32,000 nt of DNA from Acaryochloris marina MBIC11017 (GTDB lineage: Bacteria > Cyanobacteriota > Cyanobacteriia > Thermosynechococcales > Thermosynechococcaceae). The DNA is taken from assembly GCF_000018105.1 (NCBI RefSeq), contig NC_009931.1, positions 62,962-94,961 of the forward strand. The letters run 5' to 3'. Numbering within the stretch: position 1 is the stretch's first letter; every line of letters starts with the position of its first letter. Under the pieces are notes generated by a model, which saw nothing but the letters and a program-made list of their open reading frames with translations, was not told the origin of the DNA and searched no databases. The translations under genes and the position numbers were made by a program. Positions 1,620 through 32,000 of this stretch are shown in pieces.

Positions 1620-2105
1620 TCAATACCTTCCCACACTGTAAGCTCTCAATTCTGTTGACATACAATCTTGGCATATACAGTTTATTTCTAGTTGTGGGCT
1701 CGCAAGATGAAAGCCTGCATCGCTAGTGTTTTTCTTTAGCAAATCCATAATTGGTGCGCTTATCGCGACTTCCTTAACTTTTTGGCATTGACCACAGATT
1801 AAAAATTGCGTCTGAGCATGTTCTTGTTCGCACTTTATGTGTTCGCAAGCGACATACTTATTGATCAGATCAAGGCGATGCACCAAGTTCTCTGCCATTA
1901 AAAACTCTAAAATTCGATACATAGACATGGCAGGCATGGTGTCACCCAATTCAGTTTTATAAGCCTCCACTAACTCATAAGCAGAGAGTGCTTTGCTCGA
2001 TTTAAGTAACAGTGATAGCGCTAGTTTTCTTTTTTTAGTTAAACGCGAGCCGTTTTCTTTACAGCGTCGCTCTGCGTGATCGATCACCCGTTGAATAGCA
2101 TCCAT
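1620..2105 (-). CDS. Fur-family metalloregulator, proteobacterial Zur-like architecture
   Basis: 161-aa ORF. It has a long N-terminal helix (AERRCKENGSRLTKKRKLALSLL) followed by a winged helix (SAYELVEAY...MYRILEFLMAENLVHRL). Cys/His ligands are present (CEHIKCEQEH, CGQC, CICQDC). The overall layout resembles E. coli-type Zur more than the cyanobacterial Zur at 8585. It lies downstream of a COG0523 gene on the same strand. Confidence 0.75.
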   Translation of the reverse strand: MDAIQRVIDHAERRCKENGSRLTKKRKLALSLLLKSSKALSAYELVEAYKTELGDTMPAMSMYRILEFLMAENLVHRLDLINKYVACEHIKCEQEHAQTQFLICGQCQKVKEVAISAPIMDLLKKNTSDAGFHLASPQLEINCICQDCMSTELRAYSVGRY

Positions 2106-2353: not shown

Positions 2354-3562
2354 TCATGCGCTGTGACCCCACTCAGGAAATGGGTCGTTTAATGATTTCC
2401 AATAAGTGTGGCCCCGCACAATTTCTTCCTCGCTTAATAGACATTCATCAAGCGCTTGTGTGATGCGTTCTTTATCCAAACCCTGGCCGATAAAAACTAG
2501 CTCCTGACGCATATCACCAAAAGGCTCTACCCATTGCTTTTTAATTGCGGCGAGATATTCTTCGTCTTGCGGCCAGTTTTCCTTGGGTACGGCTTTCCAG
2601 AACATCCCTGCGACACCGTGGCGAGCTATGCCTCCAGCCTGACTCCAGTGACCCGCAAACTGAGGGCGCGAAGCTAGCCAGAAGTACCCTTTAGAACGGA
2701 TTAACTTACCGTATTTGTCTCTACTGGACAGAAACTGGTAAAACTTTTCTGGATGGAAAGGTCGTCGCGCAACGTAGCTAAAACTGCCTATGCCGTATTC
2801 TTCGGTTTCAGGGACATGCTCACCTCGCATCTCCTTGAGCCAACCAGCCGCTTGTTGTGCGCGCTCGAAATCGAATAATCCGGTGCTAAGCACATGATCA
2901 ATATTAACTTGGCCTTGAGCAATCGGTACTATTTTCGCGTGCGTATTCAGCGTTTTAAGAATGGCTGTTAAGCGTTCGATATCAGAAGGGAGCACCAAGT
3001 CGGTTTTGCTTATGAGAATGACGTCGGCGAACTCCACTTGATCGACCAGCAAATCGGCGACACTGCGTTCATCTTCTTCACCCAAAGATTCACCCGTATC
3101 CTTTAAGGATCGCGCCTTTTCATAGTCCTCCAGAAAATTGACTGCATCGACCACGGTCACCATTGTGTCTAGATCGGCAACATCAGAAAGCGAAGCGCCA
3201 TCTTCATCCGTAAAGGTAAAAGTTTCAGCTACAGGTAAAGGTTCAGAAATACCAGTGGATTCAATTACTAAATAATCAAAGCGACCCTCCCGTGCAAGCT
3301 TGTTAACTTCCTCAAGCAAATCTTCCCGTAAGGTGCAACAAATGCAGCCATTACTCATTTCAACAAGCTTTTCCTCGCTGCGGTTGAGAGAAACTTCACT
3401 TTGTACAATCGCCGAATCAATGTTGATTTCACTCATATCATTGACAATTACGGCGACCTTCTTGCCTTCCCGGTTGTTCAGAATGTGGCTCAGCACGGTG
3501 GTTTTACCGGCCCCAAGGAAACCTGAGAGTACGGTGACGGGGAGTTTGTTTGTATGTCTCAT
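2354..3562 (-). CDS. COG0523/CobW-family G3E GTPase, ZigA/YeiR-like putative zinc metallochaperone
   Basis: 402-aa ORF. It has the P-loop [11 protein letters not shown], the signature metal motif [21 protein letters not shown] and SKTDL. The long CobW C-terminal domain ([20 protein letters not shown]) is typical of ~400-aa ZigA-type proteins. Confidence 0.9.
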
Positions 3563-3626: not shown

Positions 3627-3652
3627 AAATGATATGATACATCGTATCATTT
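3627..3652. promoter_or_regulatory. Candidate Fur-family (Zur-type) operator upstream of the COG0523 gene
   Basis: The sequence is AAATGATATGATACATCGTATCATTT. It contains the 7-3-7 palindrome ATGATAC-atc-GTATCAT (3634-3650), nested in outer arms AAATGATA/TATCATTT. It lies about 70-90 nt upstream of the start at 3562. Confidence 0.45.
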
Positions 3653-4083: not shown

Positions 4084-4509
4084 ATGCAACAACAAGCAGA
4101 TAAAATTATCCAAACTTTAAAAGCGAAAGGCCTGCGAGTCACACCCCAGCGTTTTGCAGTCTATGCAGACTTACTAGCTCGCTCAGACCACCCAACTGCG
4201 GAGCAAATTACGAATCATCTGAATCAAGATGGACCTACCTCTTCTCAGGCAACGGTCTACTCCTCACTCCAGGCCTTACGCGAAGTGGGGCTTGTTCGAG
4301 AGGTTCTCTTAGAAGAAGGTGTTTGTCGTTATGATGCCAATATCGAACCTCACCATCACTTCCGATGTCAGTCTTGTGGAGCGATTGAGGATATTGCCTG
4401 GGATCAGCTTCAGGATTTAGATTTTAAGGCGCTTCGCCCTGGGTTACAGGTCACTCATTATGAGATCACGGTACATGGTGGATATTGCAATCGCTGCCAC
4501 CCCGAATAA
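4084..4509 (+). CDS. Fur-family regulator, PerR-like
   Basis: 141-aa ORF. LRVTPQRFAVYADLL...HPTAEQI forms the winged helix. It also has VYSSLQALREVGLV, the HHHFRCQSCG motif and a C-terminal CNRC pair. The arrangement resembles PerR/FurC-type paralogs. Confidence 0.75.
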   Translation: MQQQADKIIQTLKAKGLRVTPQRFAVYADLLARSDHPTAEQITNHLNQDGPTSSQATVYSSLQALREVGLVREVLLEEGVCRYDANIEPHHHFRCQSCGAIEDIAWDQLQDLDFKALRPGLQVTHYEITVHGGYCNRCHPE

Positions 4510-4662: not shown

Positions 4663-5091
4663 CTAACATTGAGGACAGATGGCATGAATTGATAATTGAC
4701 AATCTAACAGATGAAATCCTAATTTTTTGGCTGTCTTGGAACCGATTTTCAGAACAGCATCACTTTTAAACTCAATGGTTTCATTGCATTTAACACAAAT
4801 TAGATGGTGATGATGGTGGGGATAGGGCTGATTCAGTTCATAGTGTTTATGACCTTCAGCTAATTCTAACTCTCGCAAAATCCCCATGCGAGCCATTAAT
4901 TTCACCGTTCGATAAATGGTCGATAAACTAATGGGCTTACCCTGTTCTTGCAGGAGAGTATCTAAATCTTCGGCACTCAAATGTTTGCCTTTTTCGAGGT
5001 CTATAAACACATTAAGAATGGTTTCCCGCTGAGGGGTGAGGCGCCAACCTCGATCGTTCAGTTCTGCTTTGAGCGAGTTAGCGTCGTACAT
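4663..5091 (-). CDS. fur: Ferric uptake regulator Fur (cyanobacterial FurA type)
   Basis: 142-aa ORF. The N-terminus SLKAELNDRGWRLTPQRETIL, the segment LSTIYRTVKLMARMGILRELELAEGHKHYEL, the His run PHHHHHLICVKCN and the C-terminal CPQC closely match what I recall of the cyanobacterial Fur sequences (Synechocystis sll0567 / Anabaena FurA). Confidence 0.9.
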   Translation of the reverse strand: MYDANSLKAELNDRGWRLTPQRETILNVFIDLEKGKHLSAEDLDTLLQEQGKPISLSTIYRTVKLMARMGILRELELAEGHKHYELNQPYPHHHHHLICVKCNETIEFKSDAVLKIGSKTAKKLGFHLLDCQLSIHAICPQC

Positions 5092-5428
5092 AGTCTTTTC
5101 TCAAGAACATAAGCTTATTGAAAGTCTAACTATACATGGATGCTTTAGCAACAAGAAGATTTTATTGAGAAAAGAATAGCGGATTTTTTGCTCTCTGTAA
5201 TTGCTGATCGCCTGCATTAACAGGGTGTTTGAGCGATCAACCTTATCCTTGCTCAGCGATATGAAGCGCTAGTCCAGCCCCATTTAGAGTCCCAATCTGA
5301 CTGATGGTGACAGATTTTACTATGCTAAATCTCGGCTCTATGGACTTTCCCTAGAATTTAGTCCACCAGCTTATGCTTATCCGTTCTGTACCAGATGGGA
5401 TGGGGGCGTTGGCTGATTCTAAAAAATT

Positions 5429-5449
5429 ATGATAATGATAATCATTATA
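5429..5449. promoter_or_regulatory. Fur-box-like operator, copy 1 (upstream of the flavoprotein/FeoB-like operon)
   Basis: ATGATAATGATAATCATTATA. Positions 5431-5449 match the classical 19-bp Fur consensus GATAATGATAATCATTATC at 18 of 19 positions. The site ends about 30 nt upstream of the ATG at 5479. Confidence 0.7.
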
Positions 5450-5478
5450 TTAAACTCTTGCTGGCAGCAAGTCTATCC

Positions 5479-6600
5479 ATGAAAGAGACAAATTCTTCCT
5501 ATGACGTGGTGATAGTCGGTGCAGGGCCAGCCGGGGTCGGTTGTGCGGTTGCACTTCAAGAGCTGGGACTAGAAAACTTTATCTTGTTGGAACGACAGCA
5601 GGTAGGAGCCTCCTTTAGCCGCTGGCCAACGGAGATGAACTTGATAACCCCCTCGTTTCCGAGTCATGGTTTTGGCCTACTTGATCTCAATGCCATTACC
5701 CTGAAAACATCGCCAGCGATTGCCTTTCGCCGAGAACATCTTAATGGCCAGCAGTATGCGCTCTATTTGCAAACGGTGGTCAACCACTTCCAGTTACCTG
5801 TGAAGACAGGAACGGACGTTTTGGCAATTAAGCCCCTTTCTCAGTGTCGCGGCTTTATCCTCAAGACTTCTGGCGGAGACGTCAAAACCCAGTTTGTGAT
5901 CTGGGCTGCTGGGGAATTCCAATACCCAAGGTTAAATCCATTTGTGGGAGCAGACCATTGCATTCACAATTCTCAGATTCGCTCTTGGAAAAATTTGCCA
6001 GGGGATGAATTTACGATCATCGGTGGCTATGAAAGTGGTATGGATGCCGCGACCCACTTAGTCGAATTAGGGAAGAAGGTCAGGGTTTTAGATCGGACTG
6101 GGGCTTGGGACAACCCGGATACTGATCCGAGTATTGCGTTGTCACCCTATACAGTGCAGCGTGTAAAGCTAGCCACTCAAACGGGTCGCCTCAAACTGAT
6201 CGGCAATGTCTCCATTGAGGAAGTCAAAAAAGTGTCAGAGGGCTATGCCGTTTTCAGCAAATACGAGAAATGGCTGACAGTTCATCCCCCGATTCTGTGT
6301 ACTGGTTTTGAGACCAGCTTGCAGCAGATTGCGTCGCTGTTCGATTGGACGGAGGGTTATGCCATGTTGAATGATCAAGATGAGTCTACTCTGACGCCAG
6401 GTCTCTTTGTGGCTGGCCCCTCAGTCCGTCATCACAACGTTATTTTTTGCTTTATCTATAAATTTCGCCAGCGGTTTGCGGTAGTGGCTGATGCGATCGC
6501 ACGCCGTTTAGACCTTGACCCTGCACCATTAGAAATCTACCGCCGGCAAGGCATGTTTCTAGATGACCTGTCTTGTTGCGACAACGACTGTATCTGCTAA
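5479..6600 (+). CDS. FAD/NAD(P)-dependent oxidoreductase (CzcO/YpdA-like flavoprotein) with a C-terminal Cys-rich tail
   Basis: The tracked ORF is 5395-6600. I moved the start to the ATG at 5479 because the upstream 84 nt contain the operator. It has the dinucleotide-binding motif YDVVIVGAGPAGVGCAVAL and a second Rossmann-like segment FTIIGGYESGMDAATHL. The protein ends in LSCCDNDCIC. Confidence 0.8.
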   Translation: MKETNSSYDVVIVGAGPAGVGCAVALQELGLENFILLERQQVGASFSRWPTEMNLITPSFPSHGFGLLDLNAITLKTSPAIAFRREHLNGQQYALYLQTVVNHFQLPVKTGTDVLAIKPLSQCRGFILKTSGGDVKTQFVIWAAGEFQYPRLNPFVGADHCIHNSQIRSWKNLPGDEFTIIGGYESGMDAATHLVELGKKVRVLDRTGAWDNPDTDPSIALSPYTVQRVKLATQTGRLKLIGNVSIEEVKKVSEGYAVFSKYEKWLTVHPPILCTGFETSLQQIASLFDWTEGYAMLNDQDESTLTPGLFVAGPSVRHHNVIFCFIYKFRQRFAVVADAIARRLDLDPAPLEIYRRQGMFLDDLSCCDNDCIC

Positions 6601-6644
6601 CCCCTGTATCTGCTGAAAAATTTCTAAGTTGCTCAACATCCGCT

Positions 6645-8324
6645 ATGCCCCTGCTTACTTCACCAGCTCAGCGTTCTATCGTCGTAATCGGTAAAGAGAA
6701 TACGGGCAAATCTCAACTGGTTGCCTCGCTCACGGGATGTTTGCCCGACAGCATTAACTTCCGAGGCTCTACGATTGCCTGTGACACCTATATCGGAGGC
6801 GGACTGACTGTTGTGGATACCCCCGGTATTTTGTACCGTTCTGATCGGGTCACCACTCAAGCTGCACTGGCCCAATTAGAAACCCATGACACCGTGTTGT
6901 TGGTGATCAAAGCAACCCATATTGATGAAGATCTAGCGGATTTATGGCCCTTGGTGGTGGGGAAGCGGGGCATTGTTGTGATCACGTTTTGGGACAAAGC
7001 GTCTCAAGCTGGGTTTACCCAGCAGATTGTTCAATGCTGGGACCAAACCTCGAATCTGGCGTTTATCCCCGTTGATGCCAGACATCTAACCCCAGCCCAA
7101 CACCACGACATTCGGGCAGCCTTGCAAGAGCCGACTATATTTTCCCCAGAATGGCAACCCATTCCCACGGGATGGCGAATTGAACCGCGACCAACGGTGT
7201 TAGAACATCCACAGTTTGGCTGGCTGGTAGCGATCAGTTTTCTATTGCTGCCGACCCTACTTGCGGTGTGGTTTGCCAATAGTTTCGCAGCAGTTGCCGA
7301 TCCTCTGATGCAAGCGCTGCTCCAACCTCTAGTAGACGTTCTGGCTAATATACCTCTGTCTTTGCCCAGGGAAATGCTGATTGGGCGTTATGGCTTGCTA
7401 ACCATGGGACCGTTGCTATGGGTCTGGGCTGTACCGACCGTTATTCTCTATGCCTTATGTCTGGGAACTTACAAGGCCAGTGGCTTGGTAGAGCGAATCA
7501 CGGTTGCCCTCCATCCCCTGTTGCACCCCTTGGGTTTATCTGGACGGGATTTGGTGCGGGTCGTGATGGGATTTGGCTGTAATGTGCCAGCGGTGATCAG
7601 TACCCGTGCCTGTTCGAGTTGCGCTCGCCAAACATGTATGTCGGCGATTGCCTTTGGTTCTGCCTGTTCGTATCAATTCGGTGCCACCCTGGCAGTGTTT
7701 AGTGCAGCCCATCGGCCTAGTTTGGTGATTCCCTACCTGGGTTATCTCACTGTGACAACGCTGATTTACACTCGCTTGCTTGCCCCCAAGTCGGCTCGTT
7801 CGTCTCACAACCGGCTGATGATTGAACACCGCACATTTTTGGAAAGGCCCCGCTGGGCCACCATCTGGCGAGAAACCCAGGGCATGCTTCATCAGTTTTT
7901 TACCAGTGCTATTCCCATTTTTGTGGCCATTACCTTGATCGCGTCGCTTTTAGACGAGCTGAGTCTTCTGACTGCTGCTGCATCGATCATCCATCCCCTA
8001 ATGCAGATCTTTCGCCTCCCTCCAGAAGCAGCGTTGCCCATGATCCTGGCCTCTATTCGCAAAGATGGTCTGCTGCTCATTGCTGAACCTGAAACCCTCT
8101 CTGCTCTCACACCACTGCAGATTCTCACAGGGGTGTACCTGGCAGGTGTTTTATTGCCTTGTTTGGTCACGGCACTGACGATTGCCCGAGAACAGTCTCT
8201 CCGATTTGCCCTGGCGTTAATGGGTCGCCAGGCAATCATGGCAACTTGCTTCTCCTTGATCTTGGCCTGGGGTGGATACTGGTGCTCGAGTGCATTAGCC
8301 AACGTGGTGTTCCCCTTGCCTTAA
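6645..8324 (+). CDS. feoB: FeoB-family GTPase-permease (ferrous iron transporter-like); no feoA present
   Basis: The tracked ORF is 6573-8324. The ATG at 6645 avoids overlap with the upstream gene. The N-terminal G domain has VIGKENTGKS (G1) and VVDTPG (G3). The polytopic membrane part carries the FeoB gate signature GFGCNVPAVISTRAC. Confidence 0.8.
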   Translation: MPLLTSPAQRSIVVIGKENTGKSQLVASLTGCLPDSINFRGSTIACDTYIGGGLTVVDTPGILYRSDRVTTQAALAQLETHDTVLLVIKATHIDEDLADLWPLVVGKRGIVVITFWDKASQAGFTQQIVQCWDQTSNLAFIPVDARHLTPAQHHDIRAALQEPTIFSPEWQPIPTGWRIEPRPTVLEHPQFGWLVAISFLLLPTLLAVWFANSFAAVADPLMQALLQPLVDVLANIPLSLPREMLIGRYGLLTMGPLLWVWAVPTVILYALCLGTYKASGLVERITVALHPLLHPLGLSGRDLVRVVMGFGCNVPAVISTRACSSCARQTCMSAIAFGSACSYQFGATLAVFSAAHRPSLVIPYLGYLTVTTLIYTRLLAPKSARSSHNRLMIEHRTFLERPRWATIWRETQGMLHQFFTSAIPIFVAITLIASLLDELSLLTAAASIIHPLMQIFRLPPEAALPMILASIRKDGLLLIAEPETLSALTPLQILTGVYLAGVLLPCLVTALTIAREQSLRFALALMGRQAIMATCFSLILAWGGYWCSSALANVVFPLP

Positions 8325-8451
8325 TAGCGGTTCACCCTTGAGCGTAACCCATTGTTTCTAAACTCTAGGAAGAGGTTGGAAGATGCGATCACGCTTGGGC
8401 CACCATTGATCCTCTGCAACCGCCTGCGGTACTTAACCCGACGAGACTTGC

Positions 8452-8543
8452 CAGGGGTTAGGGTTGAATCTTGGTATCAGCAGCCTCTCAAGCAAAGCCG
8501 CTATTATAAAATGATAATGATAATCATTCTGATAACTCTTGAG
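8452..8543 (+). repeat. About 90-bp promoter/operator module, copy A
   Basis: The sequence is caGGGGTTAGGGTTGAATCTTG...CTCTCAAGC...TATAAAATGATAATGATAATCATTCTGATAACTCTTGAG. It is near-identical to 10377-10467: about 80 of 90 positions by eye, with one 1-nt indel. Confidence 0.9.
8511..8528. promoter_or_regulatory. Fur-box-like operator, copy 2 (upstream of zur)
   Basis: The exact 18-mer ATGATAATGATAATCATT. It contains the 6-1-6 palindrome AATGAT-A-ATCATT and overlaps a -10-like TAAAAT (8507-8512). It lies about 57-63 nt upstream of the 8585/8591 start. Confidence 0.7.
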
Positions 8544-8584
8544 ATCTGCAATCACACTGTTCTCATTCAAGATGCAATAAGAAG

Positions 8585-8980
8585 GTGAGTATGCCAGAGA
8601 AACTAACTCCCAATCAGCGACGCGTGTTGGAAGTCCTCTTTTCCACTCCTCAAGAATTCTCTGCCCAAGATCTGCATAAAGAATTCAAAAAGCAGCAACA
8701 AAGAGTGGGATTGGCAACGGTTTACCGTGCCCTTAAGGTCCTTCAGAAGTGTGGAAAAGTGCACACGCGCTTGTTACAGAATGGAGAAGCGGTTTATAGT
8801 ATTCCCTCTGCTCATCAACATCATCTAACCTGTGTGAGCTGTGGCAGTTCCATGCCTTTAATGAACGGTCCAGTCCACGAGTTAGAAAAGGAACTTGCCC
8901 AAACACAGAAATTTCAAGTTTTTTACCACACCCTAGAAGTCTTTGGTCTGTGTCAGAACTGCATTGAAGCAAAGGTTTAA
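8585..8980 (+). CDS. zur: Fur-family zinc uptake regulator (cyanobacterial Zur/FurB type)
   Basis: 131-aa ORF with a GTG at 8585 and an alternative ATG at 8591. LTPNQRRVLEVL...FSAQDLHKEF...GLATVYRALKVLQKCGKV, then HQHHLTCVSCG and a C-terminal CQNC. It resembles Synechocystis/Anabaena Zur as I recall them. Confidence 0.8.
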   Translation: MSMPEKLTPNQRRVLEVLFSTPQEFSAQDLHKEFKKQQQRVGLATVYRALKVLQKCGKVHTRLLQNGEAVYSIPSAHQHHLTCVSCGSSMPLMNGPVHELEKELAQTQKFQVFYHTLEVFGLCQNCIEAKV

Positions 8981-9131
8981 GCCAGAAGAAAGGTGATTAG
9001 GTGAGCCTAAATCTCCTTGACTTCATAACACCGGGTATCTAACTGATTGCTTATCAAAAACGCCAGCTCTTTGAAGGTTATAATGATGCCACCTTTGCGA
9101 CAACCCACGTTCTTCGGCTCTCTCTGACTTC

Positions 9132-9638
9132 ATGACACATGTCAGCATGTACTATCCAATTTTTGGGCCTGAGACGCTCTGCCCCCATTGCCGACAAGTG
9201 ATGCCAGCGTTGACCCTAACAGATACCTATCTTTGCAAACGTCATGGTGCATTTGAAGCAGATCCCAATACTGAAGAGTTAGTGCACTTACAATCTGGAC
9301 GCCATTGGCGGTTATGGGACGGGCAATGGTATCGCCAACATATCCATCCAGATGGCATTCGTTTCGAAATTCATGAAGCGTTAGATCGACTCTATACCGA
9401 AGGATATCGGGCGACAAAAGTCATCATCGCCCCGCGCTATCGCACGTTGATTAACTCTTTTCTAGAGCATTCTCCCTGGCCTGATCAAACCTCATCTGGG
9501 CATCCCTATTTATACGGTCTACCCGTAGAATTTGGTCCTGATCCCGAGCAAGATCCCCGTTGGCAAGTGATTAATTTTGATCTCGATAAAGAACCAGGAA
9601 TTCCCATTAATTCTCCCCATTCTCAGCTATTGTATTAG
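9132..9638 (+). CDS. Conserved hypothetical protein with an N-terminal CxxC...CxxH zinc-ribbon-like motif
   Basis: 168-aa ORF. It has LCPHCRQVMPALTLTDTYLCKRHGAF. The codon usage looks coding, and there are no competing ORFs except an antisense shadow. I suspect a cyanobacteria-restricted conserved family but cannot verify this. Confidence 0.65.
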   Translation: MTHVSMYYPIFGPETLCPHCRQVMPALTLTDTYLCKRHGAFEADPNTEELVHLQSGRHWRLWDGQWYRQHIHPDGIRFEIHEALDRLYTEGYRATKVIIAPRYRTLINSFLEHSPWPDQTSSGHPYLYGLPVEFGPDPEQDPRWQVINFDLDKEPGIPINSPHSQLLY

Positions 9639-9786
9639 GGCTTCTGAAGCGAAGCTTTTGTGTCTCATTAGTCAGATGGTGCGCTTTTTCCGTAAACAAG
9701 CGACCTCCAAAGCGTACTGGAGGGGCTGGGGCGATCTGCATCAGAGGCTGAGTTGGAAGTCCTTGCAACTCCATGAAGCGATCTAA

Positions 9787-9951
9787 AATGCGATGAAACA
9801 GGCACCCAGAGCCAGTTTCTTGGTGGAGAATCTAAACTCTAGTCTGCGCAACTATTTCACGCTTCTCACACATCTTGGGACACCCAATTTAGGACATCTT
9901 CAGTTCTTTCTCAACCACCGACAATTCATGAGTAGGGCATTGTCAACTTAA
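9787..9951 (+). pseudogene. C-terminal fragment of a DDE transposase
   Basis: The translation ...SFLVENLNSSLRNYFTLLTHLGTPNLGHLQFFLNHRQFMSRALST* matches the conserved C-terminal block (ENLNS.LRNYF...LQFFLNHR) of a transposase family common in cyanobacteria. There is no upstream catalytic part. Confidence 0.55.
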
Positions 9952-10045
9952 CGACCGATCACACAAAATGGGCACTATTTTTAACAATAGGCTCAGGATG
10001 GAGGGTTAAGCAGCAGTGCTTAGACCCGTCACATCACGCTAGCTT

Positions 10046-10348
10046 TCAAAACGCTGACTCAGCGTACTCAAAATTCAGGAGCAGATTGTTGATGTTGCAA
10101 GGGATGAAAATGTCCTCGTATGGGTTCAAATGTAGAGAAAAACGTTGAGCGTGGCCGGGAGATTTGAAGCGTCCCATCCGCGTTTCTCTCATCCTTGTCG
10201 GTCGATGTGGGTTCTCCGCTCGATTATTCAGTTCTTTATGCTGTCTGTGATCTACCCCCTTCAGGCTCTTTTTCGTGGCCACAGCATCATGCAAACGATT
10301 GTGGACGGTTCCCGCACTGATGCACGAATAAAATAGGTGGCGTAACAA
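10046..10348 (-). pseudogene. IS6-family (IS6100-like) transposase C-terminal fragment
   Basis: The translation contains ELNNRAENPHRPTRMRETRMGRFKSPGHAQRF. This is the LNNRAENSH..R.RER.M.RFKS block of IS6-family transposases. The DDE N-terminal portion is missing. Confidence 0.65.
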
Positions 10349-10376
10349 CTCAACGACACCTCAATAAGATGAATGG

Positions 10377-10467
10377 CAGGGGTTAGGGTTGAATCTTGTC
10401 TCAACGGTCTCTCAAGCAGAGTCGCTATCATAAAATGATAATGATAATCATTCCGATAACTCTTGAG
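10377..10467 (+). repeat. About 90-bp promoter/operator module, copy B
   Basis: Near-identical to 8452-8543 and in the same orientation. It ends 11 nt before the ATG of the HNH gene, with an AAGGA Shine-Dalgarno sequence in between. Confidence 0.9.
10435..10452. promoter_or_regulatory. Fur-box-like operator, copy 3 (upstream of the HNH endonuclease gene)
   Basis: The exact 18-mer ATGATAATGATAATCATT, 27 nt upstream of the ATG at 10479. Confidence 0.7.
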
Positions 10468-10478
10468 GATAAGGATCT

Positions 10479-10976
10479 ATGGGCAATGTTCTCGTTCTGA
10501 ATGCCTCCTATGAGCCGCTCAATATCACCAGTTGGCGTCGAGCGGTTGTTTTGGTCCTTAAAGAAAAAGCTGAGCAAGTGGAACACAACGGTAAGTTTGT
10601 GTATCGAGACTTTCCCCTCCCCACGGTTATTCGATTGCTCCAATATGTCCGTGTTCCGTATAAAGAAATTACCTTAAACCGTCGGAACTTACTGCATCGA
10701 GATAATCATACCTGCCAATACTGTGGATATACTGGCAGTGATTTGACCCTTGATCACGTAATGCCGAGATCCCGTGGCGGCGGTGATACTTGGGAAAATA
10801 TGGTGACGGCCTGTGTGCGCTGCAATGTCAAAAAAGGCAACCGCACTCCTAAAGAGGCACGGATGATACTGAATAAAACCCCGCGTCGCCCCCATAGTAG
10901 CTTGTACTTTGAGGTTACTAAACATTTTCGGAATGGGGTTCACCAAGAATGGCGCAAATATGTCATTGGCATGTAA
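10479..10976 (+). CDS. HNH endonuclease (McrA/COG1403-like)
   Basis: 165-aa ORF. The HNH/Zn-finger core is CQYCGYTGSDLTLDHVMPRSRGGGDTWENMVTACVRCNVKKGNRTP. The N-terminus VLVLNASYEPLNITSWRRAV is typical of this small HNH family. Confidence 0.9.
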   Translation: MGNVLVLNASYEPLNITSWRRAVVLVLKEKAEQVEHNGKFVYRDFPLPTVIRLLQYVRVPYKEITLNRRNLLHRDNHTCQYCGYTGSDLTLDHVMPRSRGGGDTWENMVTACVRCNVKKGNRTPKEARMILNKTPRRPHSSLYFEVTKHFRNGVHQEWRKYVIGM

Positions 10977-11192: not shown

Positions 11193-12869
11193 TCATTCGC
11201 CTCCATACTGGGCCTTGAGTTCAGCGACGAGATCGTCATCTATCTTTTGAAAGAGGGGAGCCGGGACCATAAAGGAGCGACCTGCGGCTAAAAGTGTTAA
11301 ATCCGATGCTTCAGTCATGGTGTGACGGCGTTCTACATCAGTCAGCTGGAGGGCATCAAACAGAGCTTGGGTTGTGTGTGGAATGAATGGAGCGCTTGAG
11401 ATCGCATACAGCCGAATTAGGTTAACGCAGGTACGAATCACCATCGCAGTCTCGTCCTGATCCGTCTTAAACAATACCCACGGAGCCCGCACATCAATGT
11501 ACTGATTTCCTGTTCTCCAAAGGGCATTTAAAGTCTCCGTTGCTCGACGGAACTCTAGGTTATGCAGATATTTGCGTAGTTTTTCCACCAGCTCGTTACA
11601 GGTCACCTGCAGCTCGGCTTCAGCATCACCAGGGGTGCCCCCCTCCGGCAAAGTCATCCCAAATCGAGATGCTGTAAATTTGAGGATGCGATTTACAAAA
11701 TTACCCAGATTATCAGCCAGCTCCTTATTCACCTGCTTCTGGAACTGTTCCCAAGTAAAAGCAGAGTCAGCCGATTCAGGAGCATTGGCGATCAGCATAT
11801 AGCGCCAATTGTCTGCTGAGGCGATTTCAAGGGCTTGGTCTAAAAAGACCCCTCTCTGGGAACTGGTCGAGAACTTGCCGCCGTAGTAGTTAAGCCAATT
11901 AAACCCCTTAATATAGTCCACCATCTTCCACGGCTCACGGCTGCCTAAAATCGTGGCGGGCCACATGATCGTATGAAAGGGCAAATTATCCTTTGCCATG
12001 AACTGGGTGTAGTGAACATCATCGCTCTCCTTCCACCAGCATTCCCAGTCATTGTTAGTGATATCGCCCCAAGCCTTTGTGGCTGAAATGTAGCCGATAG
12101 GAGCATCAAACCATACGTAGAAGACCTTCCTCTCAAATCCTTCAGTGGGCACTGGCACACCCCAGACTAAATCACGGGTGATGCATCGGCTTTTTAATCC
12201 TTCATTAAGCCACTTGAGAGCAATCGATTTAGTCAGGGTCGACCATTGAGTTTGTTTATCGACCCAATTGCGGACTTCATCACTGAGCTTATCTAGCCTT
12301 AAGAACAAATGCCTTGAAGTACGCAATTCTAGGTGCGTGCTGCCGGAAATTGTAGAACGAGGTTTAATCAGCTCGGTTGGAGTGAGAACTTTAGTGCAGT
12401 TCTCGCACTGATCGCCTCGGGCCTGTTCATAGCCGCAGTGCGGACAGGTACCAGTGACATAGCGATCAGGCAGAAACCGTTGATCGTCTAATGCATAGAA
12501 CTGGCTGATTTCACGTTCTTCGATAAAGTTTTGCTTTGCTAGTTGTTGATAAAAGTACTGGGTGAGTTCATGATTTTCAGGAGCCGACGTCCGACCAAAA
12601 TAATCGAAAGAGAGACCAAAGCGCTTGTAGATTTCCTTCTGCTTGTGGTACTGCTTTGCACAAAATTCTGCTACTTCTAGCCCTGCATCAATGGCCGCAA
12701 TTTCAGCAGGAGTCCCATGCTCATCAGTGGCGCAGATGTAGAGAACCTCTTCCCCCTCTTGTCGTAAAAAACGTGCGTATATATCAGCGGGAAGCATTGA
12801 GCCCACAAGATTTCCTAAATGCTTAATACCATTGATATAAGGAAGAGCACTGGTAATGAGATATCGCAT
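11193..12869 (-). CDS. metG: Methionine--tRNA ligase (MetRS1-type, single zinc knuckle, no C-terminal tRNA-binding appendix)
   Basis: 558-aa ORF. The class I HIGH region is ALPYINGIKHLGNLVG. The zinc knuckle is CPHCGYEQARGDQCENC. The KMSKS equivalent is GKFSTSS. The anticodon-binding helical domain follows. Confidence 0.95.
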   Translation of the reverse strand: MRYLITSALPYINGIKHLGNLVGSMLPADIYARFLRQEGEEVLYICATDEHGTPAEIAAIDAGLEVAEFCAKQYHKQKEIYKRFGLSFDYFGRTSAPENHELTQYFYQQLAKQNFIEEREISQFYALDDQRFLPDRYVTGTCPHCGYEQARGDQCENCTKVLTPTELIKPRSTISGSTHLELRTSRHLFLRLDKLSDEVRNWVDKQTQWSTLTKSIALKWLNEGLKSRCITRDLVWGVPVPTEGFERKVFYVWFDAPIGYISATKAWGDITNNDWECWWKESDDVHYTQFMAKDNLPFHTIMWPATILGSREPWKMVDYIKGFNWLNYYGGKFSTSSQRGVFLDQALEIASADNWRYMLIANAPESADSAFTWEQFQKQVNKELADNLGNFVNRILKFTASRFGMTLPEGGTPGDAEAELQVTCNELVEKLRKYLHNLEFRRATETLNALWRTGNQYIDVRAPWVLFKTDQDETAMVIRTCVNLIRLYAISSAPFIPHTTQALFDALQLTDVERRHTMTEASDLTLLAAGRSFMVPAPLFQKIDDDLVAELKAQYGGE

Positions 12870-22633: not shown

Positions 22634-22697
22634 GGGGTTTGTGGGGCAATGGAACAATAAACAACGTTGTTTATTGTTCCATTGCCCCACAAACCCC
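22634..22697. repeat. 64-bp perfect palindrome (32-bp arms, no spacer)
   Basis: The left arm GGGGTTTGTGGGGCAATGGAACAATAAACAAC is followed directly by its exact reverse complement GTTGTTTATTGTTCCATTGCCCCACAAACCCC. It starts 34 nt after the stop at 22600. Confidence 0.95.
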
Positions 22698-30426: not shown

Positions 30427-30650
30427 TTAACAATGAAGCTCTCCCACCTTCAAGAGGATGGGAGTTTCTAATGCTAATCTAGAGCTACGCCAGTAGACCA
30501 TAGATCACATAAAACAGGCCAGCTTCTAGCCTTACGCCTGGAACTTTTGCCAGAACGTAACTGACGGTCATTTCTGCCGATCAGCTTAAGAATGCCTCGA
30601 GCTGCAATATTCCGAGACCCGTTAATGTCAGCATTTATAGGAAAGACCTT
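30427..30650 (-). pseudogene. IS200/IS605-family TnpB (OrfB) C-terminal remnant
   Basis: The minus-strand translation includes INADINGSRNIAARGILKL. This is the conserved (H/N)ADxNAAxNI block at the RuvC-III end of TnpB. No upstream part is present, and the frame is broken downstream. Confidence 0.5.
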
Positions 30651-30849
30651 TTAACCCCAACACTCCGTTACCCGCTCCCACTCAAGCTCCGCCTGAACCC
30701 TCTCCCAGATCCGCTTCATCGCCTTCTGTGGACGAAGCTTAATCACTTGTAAAATCTCAAAGTTCTCCTCAATTTCGACGGCGCACTCAAATCAACCCCC
30801 CGGTGTAGCAAACGATTCCCTCACGAAAGGCTTCCCCGTTCTCTTCACC
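30651..30849 (-). pseudogene. Degraded copy of the gene tail found intact at 31802-32000
   Basis: It aligns colinearly with 31802-32000, with identical blocks AATCTCAAAGTTCTCCTCAATTTC and CCTCACGAAAGGCTTCCCCGT. The minus-strand reading is broken by a stop or indel (VKRTGKPFVRESFATPGG*FECAVEIEENFEILQVIKLRP...). Confidence 0.6.
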
Positions 30850-30915: not shown

Positions 30916-31659
30916 CTAGTTAGGAGATTGTTCGCATTTCAGTGTATAACCTACCCCTCGAATCGTATGGATAAGTTCGGTTCCAACCTGATTGGCTTTG
31001 AGCTTATTCCGAAGACGAGACACATGGACATCAACTACTCGCGAGTCAACGATGCTCCCATTACTATATCCCCACACTTTCTCTAACAACTCTTGACGAG
31101 AAACTACTGCTCCAGGGGTACTTGCCAATAGTTCTAACAGACTAAACTCCATGTGGGTTAGGATGATACGTTCTTGACCTCTGAAGACCTTCCGCTTGTT
31201 GGTATCAATGTGGAGTGAACCGATGTTCAGCACTCCGGTCACTCGATAATTAAAAGGTTTTAGAGAACCCATTCGGCGTATGATGCATCGCACTCGAGAT
31301 TCTAGTTCCTTGGGTGAAAAGGGCTTGACCATGTAATCATCCGCACCCATTTCTAAGCCAGTAATCCGATCTCCTACCTCAGAAAGTGCCGTCAGCATAA
31401 TGATTGGAACCCTCGAGGTCTTACGGATGGCCCGACAGACACCATACCCATCCAGTCTGGGCATCATAACATCTAAAACAATCAAATCAGGGTGCTGACG
31501 ATCAAAGATTTCTAGTGCTTCTACGCCGTCAGCAGCAGTGAAGACGTGATAGCCCATCATGGATAGCCTAGTGTCTAAAATTCGTCGAATCGGCCCTTCA
31601 TCATCAACTACCAAGATAGAATGCTGCTTATTGCTCTGATTATTCATGAATTCAGGCAT
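30916..31659 (-). CDS. OmpR-family response regulator, RpaB (Ycf27)-like paralog
   Basis: 247-aa ORF. ILVVDDEGPIRRILDTRLSMMGYHVFTAADGVEALEIF...PDLIVLDVMMPRLDGYGVC...PIIMLTAL...DRITGLEMGADDYMVKPFSPKELE closely tracks RpaB. A winged-helix output domain follows (MEFSLLELL...VWGY...VDVHVSRLRNKL). Confidence 0.9.
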   Translation of the reverse strand: MPEFMNNQSNKQHSILVVDDEGPIRRILDTRLSMMGYHVFTAADGVEALEIFDRQHPDLIVLDVMMPRLDGYGVCRAIRKTSRVPIIMLTALSEVGDRITGLEMGADDYMVKPFSPKELESRVRCIIRRMGSLKPFNYRVTGVLNIGSLHIDTNKRKVFRGQERIILTHMEFSLLELLASTPGAVVSRQELLEKVWGYSNGSIVDSRVVDVHVSRLRNKLKANQVGTELIHTIRGVGYTLKCEQSPN

Positions 31660-31801
31660 CTTTGGCTACGCTTTAGTTCAACGTAGCATTTATACCTAAG
31701 CAATAATGCTTAAGACGCTTGATAGAAATGATTCTTATGATTAGGTCATTTTCGAGGGAAATTGCCAAGTCTGCTGCTTCGGCATTTGCCCAAAACTCAA
31801 C

Positions 31802-32000
31802 TCATCCCCAAACCCTACTCACCCGCTCCCGCTCCAACCACACACCAACCATCTCCCCAATCCGCTCCATCGTCTCCGGTGGCCTCAGCTCAATCACTTC
31901 CCCAATCTCAAAGTTCTCCTCAATTTCAACCGCGCACTCCCAACAGAACTCCGGCGTAGCAAAAGTATTCCTCACGAAAGGCTTCCCCGTCCCTGCCACC
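31802..32000 (-). CDS. 3' end of a hypothetical gene whose 5' part lies beyond the window end
   Basis: The minus frame is open from the window edge to the TGA at 31804-31802: ...GKPFVRNTFATPEFCWECAVEIEENFEIGEVIELRPPETMERIGEMVGVWLERERVSRVWG*. The overlapping plus-strand Pro-rich ORF looks like a shadow. Confidence 0.5.
   Translation of the reverse strand, partial: VAGTGKPFVRNTFATPEFCWECAVEIEENFEIGEVIELRPPETMERIGEMVGVWLERERVSRVWG

Follow-up and report, generated by a model that had tools for sequence, protein, structure and literature searches.

Three identical Fur-box-like operators on an Acaryochloris marina plasmid are probably sites for the zinc regulator Zur, one of them within a duplicated zur promoter

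We analyzed a 32,000-nucleotide (nt) stretch of DNA from the cyanobacterium Acaryochloris marina MBIC11017 (contig NC_009931.1, positions 62,962 to 94,961 of the forward strand; hereafter, the window), in which one exact 18-nt sequence resembling a classical Fur box stands upstream of three genes: a flavoprotein that heads an operon with a FeoB-like gene, the regulator gene zur, and an HNH endonuclease. The window belongs to a plasmid-type replicon and is 96-99.6% identical to pREC2, a conjugative plasmid of 330 kb (AP026077.1) from A. marina MBIC10699. What looks like a 'classical Fur box' corresponds, in cyanobacteria, to the experimentally defined Zur box. We consider it likely that the cognate regulator of the three sites is the cyanobacterial Zur encoded at 8591-8980, its 86%-identical chromosomal twin, or both.

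The 18-mer, ATGATAATGATAATCATT, is found at 5429-5446, 8511-8528 and 10435-10452, on the forward strand in each case; we refer to these putative Zur boxes as copies 1, 2 and 3. Each precedes a start codon, as the first-pass annotation of this DNA had reported. The gap from box end to start is 32 nt for copy 1 (ATG at 5479), 56 or 62 nt for copy 2 (GTG at 8585 or the annotated ATG at 8591) and 26 nt for copy 3 (ATG at 10479). Chance matches to the 18-mer averaged 0.08 per shuffle, with a maximum of 1, in 100 dinucleotide-preserving shuffles with up to three mismatches allowed. Direct reading confirms that copy 1 at 5431-5449, GATAATGATAATCATTATA, agrees with the classical Fur consensus GATAATGATAATCATTATC at 18 of 19 positions. 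The consensus TGATAATnATTATCA, which was drawn from Anabaena Zur sites supported by electrophoretic mobility shift assays and has a 7-1-7 architecture, is matched by the sites beginning at 5430, 8512 and 10436, each of which agrees with it in 14 of 15 positions. Every one of these matches is overlapped by a second site shifted 6 nt downstream; in copy 1 the pair comprises TGATAATGATAATCA at 5430-5444 and TGATAATCATTATAT at 5436-5450. Scanning the window for TGAGAATnATTCTCA-type boxes returned nothing besides the same three sites. The earlier interpretation of the 18-mer as a putative operator of a Fur-family repressor at three promoters is supported.

The cyanobacterial Zur (FurB) box was reportedly defined in Anabaena sp. 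PCC 7120 by Napolitano et al. 2012. It is a 7-1-7 palindrome (PMC3323870), and Anabaena Zur sites that have been used or validated read TGATAATCATTATCA, TGATTATGATAATCA, TGATAATCATTATCG and TGATAATAATAATCA (PMC10957091 Table S3). The window sites, which read TGATAATGATAATCA when taken as a 7-1-7 box, have the same A/T-rich palindromic form. Anabaena all3515 and alr4028 have, like the window, double sites that overlap with a 6-nt shift. The Anabaena box lies over the -10 region, and copy 1 overlaps a predicted -10: a consensus scan placed a sigma-70-type promoter (TTGGCT-16 nt-GATAAT) at 5409-5436 on the forward strand, with its -10 hexamer inside the box. Compared with the Anabaena FurA consensus AAATAAATTCTCAATAAAT (PMC4005646), the three sites have 8-9 mismatches in 19 positions, although this consensus represents a single species, so the comparison is not definitive. 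Because the sites fit the Anabaena Zur sites and fit the FurA consensus poorly, we favor the Zur ortholog as the probable binder. The first-pass annotation held that the sequence alone could not name the binder; the comparative evidence instead points to the protein encoded at 8591-8980.

The genes that carry the same box elsewhere are consistent with this assignment. Among the matches listed from a genome contig scan, the exact 18-mer lies between divergent ZnuA and ABC-ATPase genes in Gomphosphaeria and Crocosphaera, upstream of COG0523 genes in Coleofasciculus and Crocosphaera watsonii, upstream of GTP cyclohydrolase I in an Acaryochloris metagenome-assembled genome (MAG), and upstream of a TonB-dependent receptor in a Leptolyngbyaceae MAG. 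The znuA/ABC, COG0523, folE and TonB-dependent receptor genes are published categories of the cyanobacterial Zur regulon (PMC6103462), and in this respect too the motif resembles the Anabaena box. On the Acaryochloris chromosome, the COG0523 gene beside zur is preceded by TGATAATCGTTATCT.

Four Fur-family genes had been noticed near the boxes, and we recovered all of them, at 1620-2105 (reverse strand), 4084-4509 (forward), 4663-5091 (reverse) and 8585/8591-8980 (forward). Together with a ZigA/COG0523 zinc chaperone gene they fall within the first 9 kb of the window. The last of the four is the putative regulator, a cyanobacterial Zur/FurB ortholog of 129 amino acids (8591-8980, from ATG) or 131 amino acids (8585-8980, from GTG). 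The nearest solved structure to its product is PDB 7NE9, the Zur of Synechococcus WH8102 (E 6.6e-24), followed by the Zur proteins of M. tuberculosis and S. coelicolor. The product has a counterpart of 100% identity in A. marina, and the chromosomal copy is 86% identical. The gene at 4084-4509 encodes a PerR-like paralog of 141 amino acids, for which PerR is the top NCBIfam model, below its cut-off.

Copy 1 precedes an operon whose first gene (5479-6600, forward) encodes an NAD(P)/FAD-dependent oxidoreductase (Pyr_redox_3, CzcO-like). After a spacing of 44 nt it is followed by a gene for a FeoB-like GTPase/permease with MMR_HSR1/FeoB_N and Gate domains (6645-8324, forward; start as in the pREC2 annotation). 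Related clusters exist on plasmid pREC1, where the paralogous island lacks the FeoB-like and HNH genes, and on the chromosome, where a third cluster (flavoprotein, FeoB-like gene, a 486-amino-acid gene and zur) adjoins a COG0523-WD40 pair. That chromosomal pair near the zur gene was already described by Barnett et al. (PMC3323870). The -35-like TTGGCT/TTAGCT is kept in the Acaryochloris paralogs of the flavoprotein promoter. At the place equivalent to copy 1, TGATAATGATTATCA or TGATAATGATAATCA is found in the Acaryochloris chromosomal locus (L121), in the pREC1 copy and on a metagenome contig of chromosomal type (L122). An orthologous operon with 70% nucleotide identity in Leptolyngbya sp. PCC 7375 carries a perfect TGATAATGATTATCA about 60 nt upstream. 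The Zur-type box of the flavoprotein operon is kept in L081, L121, L122 and L212.

A metagenome scan with an alignment of 16 flavoprotein sequences returned 80 loci. Thirteen of them are close orthologs, with an identity of 65% or more, and every one carries a Zur-type box with no more than two mismatches, located 33-55 nt from the inferred start in 12 of the 13, and the FeoB-like gene follows the flavoprotein gene wherever the contig permits. The boxes are concentrated upstream, with 14 matches in 1,300 upstream nt versus 10 in the remaining 63,087 nt of these loci. Since several of the 13 loci are near-duplicates, they represent perhaps about eight independent lineages. More distant flavoprotein homologs (57% identity or less, mostly on high- or low-GC non-cyanobacterial contigs) are generally without the box. 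Copy 1 also has little in common with copies 2 and 3 outside the box. Judging from these comparisons, copy 1 is both independent and ancestral, with wide conservation upstream of orthologous operons.

The first-pass annotation also described a downstream block, AACTCTTG, common to all three copies. The block is present, but in copy 1 it stands 1 nt out of register, and the paralogous and orthologous flavoprotein promoters have AATCCTG or AACCCTG in its place. We dropped it as a functional element of copy 1, where the likeness is probably coincidental because the block is absent from the paralogous promoters. Between box 1 and the flavoprotein start lies a hairpin, CTTGCTGGCAGCAAG (5457-5471). 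The chromosomal and pREC1 paralogs have it too, and it is possibly a structure of the 5' untranslated region.

The C-terminus of the flavoprotein (6490-6600) has a Cys-rich tail, LSCCxNDCIC, a possible metal-binding motif that does not vary among 16 cyanobacterial orthologs. About 500 Klebsiella plasmids carry flavoprotein homologs with 39-50% identity, and so do plasmids of Enterococcus, Paenibacillus and haloarchaea. Next to the Paenibacillus homolog is a gene annotated 'FeoB small GTPase domain', and FeoB-like genes also lie beside more distant metagenomic flavoprotein homologs, so the pairing of the two genes extends beyond the cyanobacteria. The Zur-regulated FAD oxidoreductase that Synechococcus PCC 7002 carries on pAQ7 was considered as a member of the same family and is probably a different enzyme. 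No Synechococcus record was among the organism names listed for a plasmid tblastn search with the flavoprotein (E <= 1e-20). For Zur-regulated FeoB in cyanobacteria, we found nothing specific in the literature.

Copy 2 lies in the promoter of zur, within a segment at 8449-8543 (forward strand) that is homologous to every Acaryochloris zur promoter examined. In each of eight other Acaryochloris zur promoters, TGAGAATGATAATCA is present at the homologous position. Because copy 2 sits before the gene of the cyanobacterial Zur ortholog, negative autoregulation of zur, conserved in Acaryochloris, is implied. The TIGR02652/DUF2396 gene downstream of zur (9132-9638, forward) may be co-transcribed with it. 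About 40 nt upstream of the box (8458-8470, and 10383-10395 for copy 3) stands a block, TTAGGGTTGAATC, that the HNH copy shares with all Acaryochloris zur promoters; its distance from the -10-like hexamers is too great for a -35 element. An inverted repeat around boxes 2 and 3, CTCAAG...CTTGAG, was dropped, as it is not conserved in the chromosomal zur promoters.

Copy 3 has a different history. Copies 2 and 3 lie within a direct repeat of about 94 nt, in which 8449/8450-8543 and 10374/10375-10467 are about 89% identical. The second unit (10374-10467, forward) appears to be a transplanted zur promoter module, of which 8449-8543 is the source, and it ends 11 nt before the start of the HNH endonuclease gene (10479-10976, forward, 165 amino acids). 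Based on this repeat, copy 3 descends from copy 2. The remnant of an IS6-family transposase gene (10046-10348, reverse) lies about 25 nt upstream of the duplicated module. The HNH gene is a plasmid paralog of a core cyanobacterial gene, and the 165-amino-acid family is about 80% identical across cyanobacterial orders. Homology to native HNH loci begins in the window only about 10 nt before the ATG; further upstream come the zur-promoter segment and then the IS6 remnant.

Native HNH loci do not have the box. A 90%-identical HNH copy in a dnaK-HNH-DHH-ftsH context has no Zur-like site in 6.5 kb; its contig derives from the sequencing-run series that also yielded several Acaryochloris zur contigs. 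The HNH orthologs of Leptolyngbya O-77, Nostocales (in a protein named for Tolypothrix) and Limnothrix have no upstream Zur box at up to three mismatches. The native HNH promoters of four cyanobacterial lineages (L130, L214-L222) have in common a GTGCTACTAT-like motif 80-40 nt upstream. In the comparison of orthologous promoters, which the first-pass annotation had proposed, boxes are kept at the zur and flavoprotein-operon promoters and not at native HNH promoters. We conclude that the native promoter of the plasmid HNH gene was replaced by a copy of the zur promoter, probably through an IS-associated rearrangement.

These histories bear on why the three boxes are identical. The first-pass annotation had suggested recent duplication or strong selection for one regulator. 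Recent duplication holds for copies 2 and 3 with their 94-nt promoter module and fails for copy 1, which is independent and ancestral. The chromosomal zur box is TGAGAATGATAATCATG; within the 18-mer, the plasmid zur box differs from it at position 5 alone, where T replaces G. About two base changes from the chromosomal box suffice to make copies 1 and 2 identical. Read in this light, their identity is that of two near-consensus sites and requires no special event. Between copies 2 and 3 the box is unchanged, while there are about 10 differences over the other ~76 positions of the module. The unchanged box in copy 3 is compatible with purifying selection but is not statistically compelling by itself.

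We propose that under zinc sufficiency Zn-loaded Zur dimers would bind the overlapping 7-1-7 sites (TGATAATGATAATCA and the site shifted by 6 nt). The bound sites would cover or abut the -10 region and so block transcription; under zinc limitation, Zur would leave the DNA and three units would be derepressed. The first unit would be the flavoprotein/FeoB-like operon, an ancestral member of the regulon with wide conservation among cyanobacteria. The second would be zur itself, possibly with the TIGR02652 gene, under negative autoregulation. The third would be the plasmid HNH paralog, driven by the 94-nt zur-promoter copy.

The main alternative is that the sites are iron (Fur) boxes, bound by the Fur-type protein encoded at 4663-5091 or by another Acaryochloris Fur homolog, which would shut down a ferrous-iron-type transporter operon when iron is sufficient. 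This sequence serves as the Fur (iron) box of Bacillus and E. coli, and the B. subtilis Fur 7-1-7 box is TGATAATnATTATCA. Outside cyanobacteria the exact 18-mer is widespread, mostly in Bacillota and Proteobacteria among the matches listed, and the near-perfect agreement of copy 1 with the classical consensus would suit this alternative as well. The 4663-5091 gene (reverse strand, 142 amino acids), whose best PDB relatives are Fur proteins, is divergent from the flavoprotein operon and copy 1 and is therefore a rival candidate regulator. A FeoB-like transporter downstream of copy 1 also suits iron; zur and the HNH gene are not iron genes. The same gene set in MBIC11017 (AM1_3038/B0139 and AM1_3040/F0079) was placed among iron-acquisition duplicates by Miller et al. 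2011 (PMC3156569), under the labels 'Fur regulator' and 'putative Fe2+ transporter'. At least 13 Fur homologs are reported for A. marina MBIC11017 (PMC3516471), such that another paralog or cross-talk is possible.

Three further observations, like those above, weigh against assigning the sites to Zur. Copies 2 and 3 adjoin -10-like hexamers, but the promoter scan did not find a consensus -35 for either. The HNH paralog retains its CxxC...CxxC motifs and HNH residues; as these zinc-finger cysteines are kept, it is not a zinc-free substitute, which departs from the 'zinc-free paralog' logic of Zur regulons. Finally, in four low-GC loci (L156, L161, L171 and L176) a different Fur-family box, TGAGAATGATTCTCA, lies about 30 nt upstream of a distant flavoprotein homolog, which suggests that another metalloregulator controls the flavoprotein gene in other lineages.

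Nevertheless, we regard control by an iron-responsive Fur as unlikely. The Anabaena FurA consensus differs from the window sites, which fit it poorly. The same box stands at zur and COG0523 in Acaryochloris and at znuA, COG0523 and folE elsewhere in cyanobacteria. The FeoB-like protein scores far under the cut-off of the NCBIfam FeoB model (TIGR00437; 106 versus 316 bits).

A zinc regulator other than the cyanobacterial Zur ortholog is less probable still. The candidate is the proteobacterial-type Zur-like paralog of 161 amino acids encoded at 1620-2105 (reverse strand), whose nearest solved relatives are the Zur proteins of Xanthomonas (7DH7) and E. coli (4MTD). Its gene is in the same island and adjoins zigA (2354-3562, reverse), the zinc chaperone gene, of which it lies downstream. 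However, the zigA operon is preceded by another palindrome, AAATGATATGATACATCGTATCATTT (3627-3652), with four mismatches to the Zur 7-1-7 consensus, and the examined Acaryochloris chromosomal zur loci have the box and no such gene within 6 kb on either side. The 161-amino-acid protein more plausibly serves the zigA palindrome than the 18-mer, and the two genes may form a second, separate proteobacterial-type zinc-responsive circuit. Located 65-90 nt upstream of zigA, the palindrome has the same sequence in pREC1 as in pREC2.

It is barely credible that either the 18-mer or the 94-nt module belongs to dispersed or mobile DNA without a regulatory role. The first-pass annotation had raised a dispersed repeat family, which was rejected on testing across the window and 72,556 plasmids. 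Copies 2 and 3 do form a direct repeat beside an IS6 remnant on a plasmid of a genus whose plasmids are IS-rich, but the module has only two copies in the 32-kb window, each immediately upstream of a gene. Among the 72,556 plasmids it is found in just four places, all on two Acaryochloris plasmids; the best match per plasmid lies in an unannotated gap just upstream of zur, and pREC2 has the remaining two. The module is orthologous to zur promoters on chromosomes and has no terminal inverted repeats that we could see at its ends.

Having weighed these alternatives, we return to the Zur assignment and to the systems already known. Taken as Zur boxes, the sites are ordinary cyanobacterial ones and are nothing categorically new. 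The classical 19-bp Fur box of E. coli, GATAATGATAATCATTATC, is nearly identical in sequence and has the same hexamer-array architecture; its cognate regulator is Fur, whereas that of the cyanobacterial counterpart is most likely Zur. Unlike the Anabaena Zur sites, those in the window are plasmid-borne and mutually identical, and one precedes an HNH paralog. Another precedes zur itself, and a review table marks autoregulation for Synechococcus PCC 7002 and not for Anabaena (PMC6103462). The flavoprotein/FeoB-like operon is not found in the published Zur regulon lists that we surveyed. The window also resembles known cases of regulon rewiring through promoter duplication or capture and the Acaryochloris plasmid paralogs described by Miller et al. 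2011 (PMC3156569): a plasmid holds a duplicated core gene, here HNH, close to IS remnants, and paralogous clusters for metal homeostasis occur on the chromosome and two plasmids. In contrast to those earlier cases, the breakpoint in the window can be read at the nucleotide level, with a 94-nt segment fused 11 nt before the HNH start.

Several other features of the replicon were recorded. Core chromosomal genes present on it in an extra copy are the TIGR02652/DUF2396 gene (9132-9638), the HNH gene (10479-10976) and metG (11193-12869); ylxR is also carried by pREC2. A TnpB/IS605 element (404 amino acids) is inserted in pREC2 at the place corresponding to about 9860-9871 of the window and is absent from the window. 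A perfect 32+32-nt palindrome without a spacer (GGGGTTTGTGGGGCAATGGAACAATAAACAAC and its reverse complement) lies at 22634-22697. A 212-nt direct repeat with 73% identity, at 30628-30839 and 31779-31990, flanks a response-regulator gene at 30916-31659.

Beyond the literature that we found, the analysis adds the consistent Zur-type box of the flavoprotein/FeoB-like operon, zur autoregulation in Acaryochloris, and the transplanted promoter of the HNH gene. If the Zur assignment is correct, a 'textbook Fur box' in a cyanobacterium is to be read as a zinc (Zur) site, and an Acaryochloris gene set listed as iron-acquisition duplicates would be reassigned to the zinc regulon. The HNH gene would provide a clean nucleotide-level case of recruitment into a regulon by promoter duplication. 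We suggest, tentatively and at somewhat less than even confidence, that the flavoprotein/FeoB-like pair is a conserved member of the Zur regulon and a candidate system for zinc uptake or allocation under limitation, not an iron transporter, and that a spare HNH gene has been wired into the zinc-starvation response through the zur promoter. The main lead is the flavoprotein/FeoB-like operon, which has Zur boxes in many cyanobacterial lineages and may represent a new zinc-responsive transport system.

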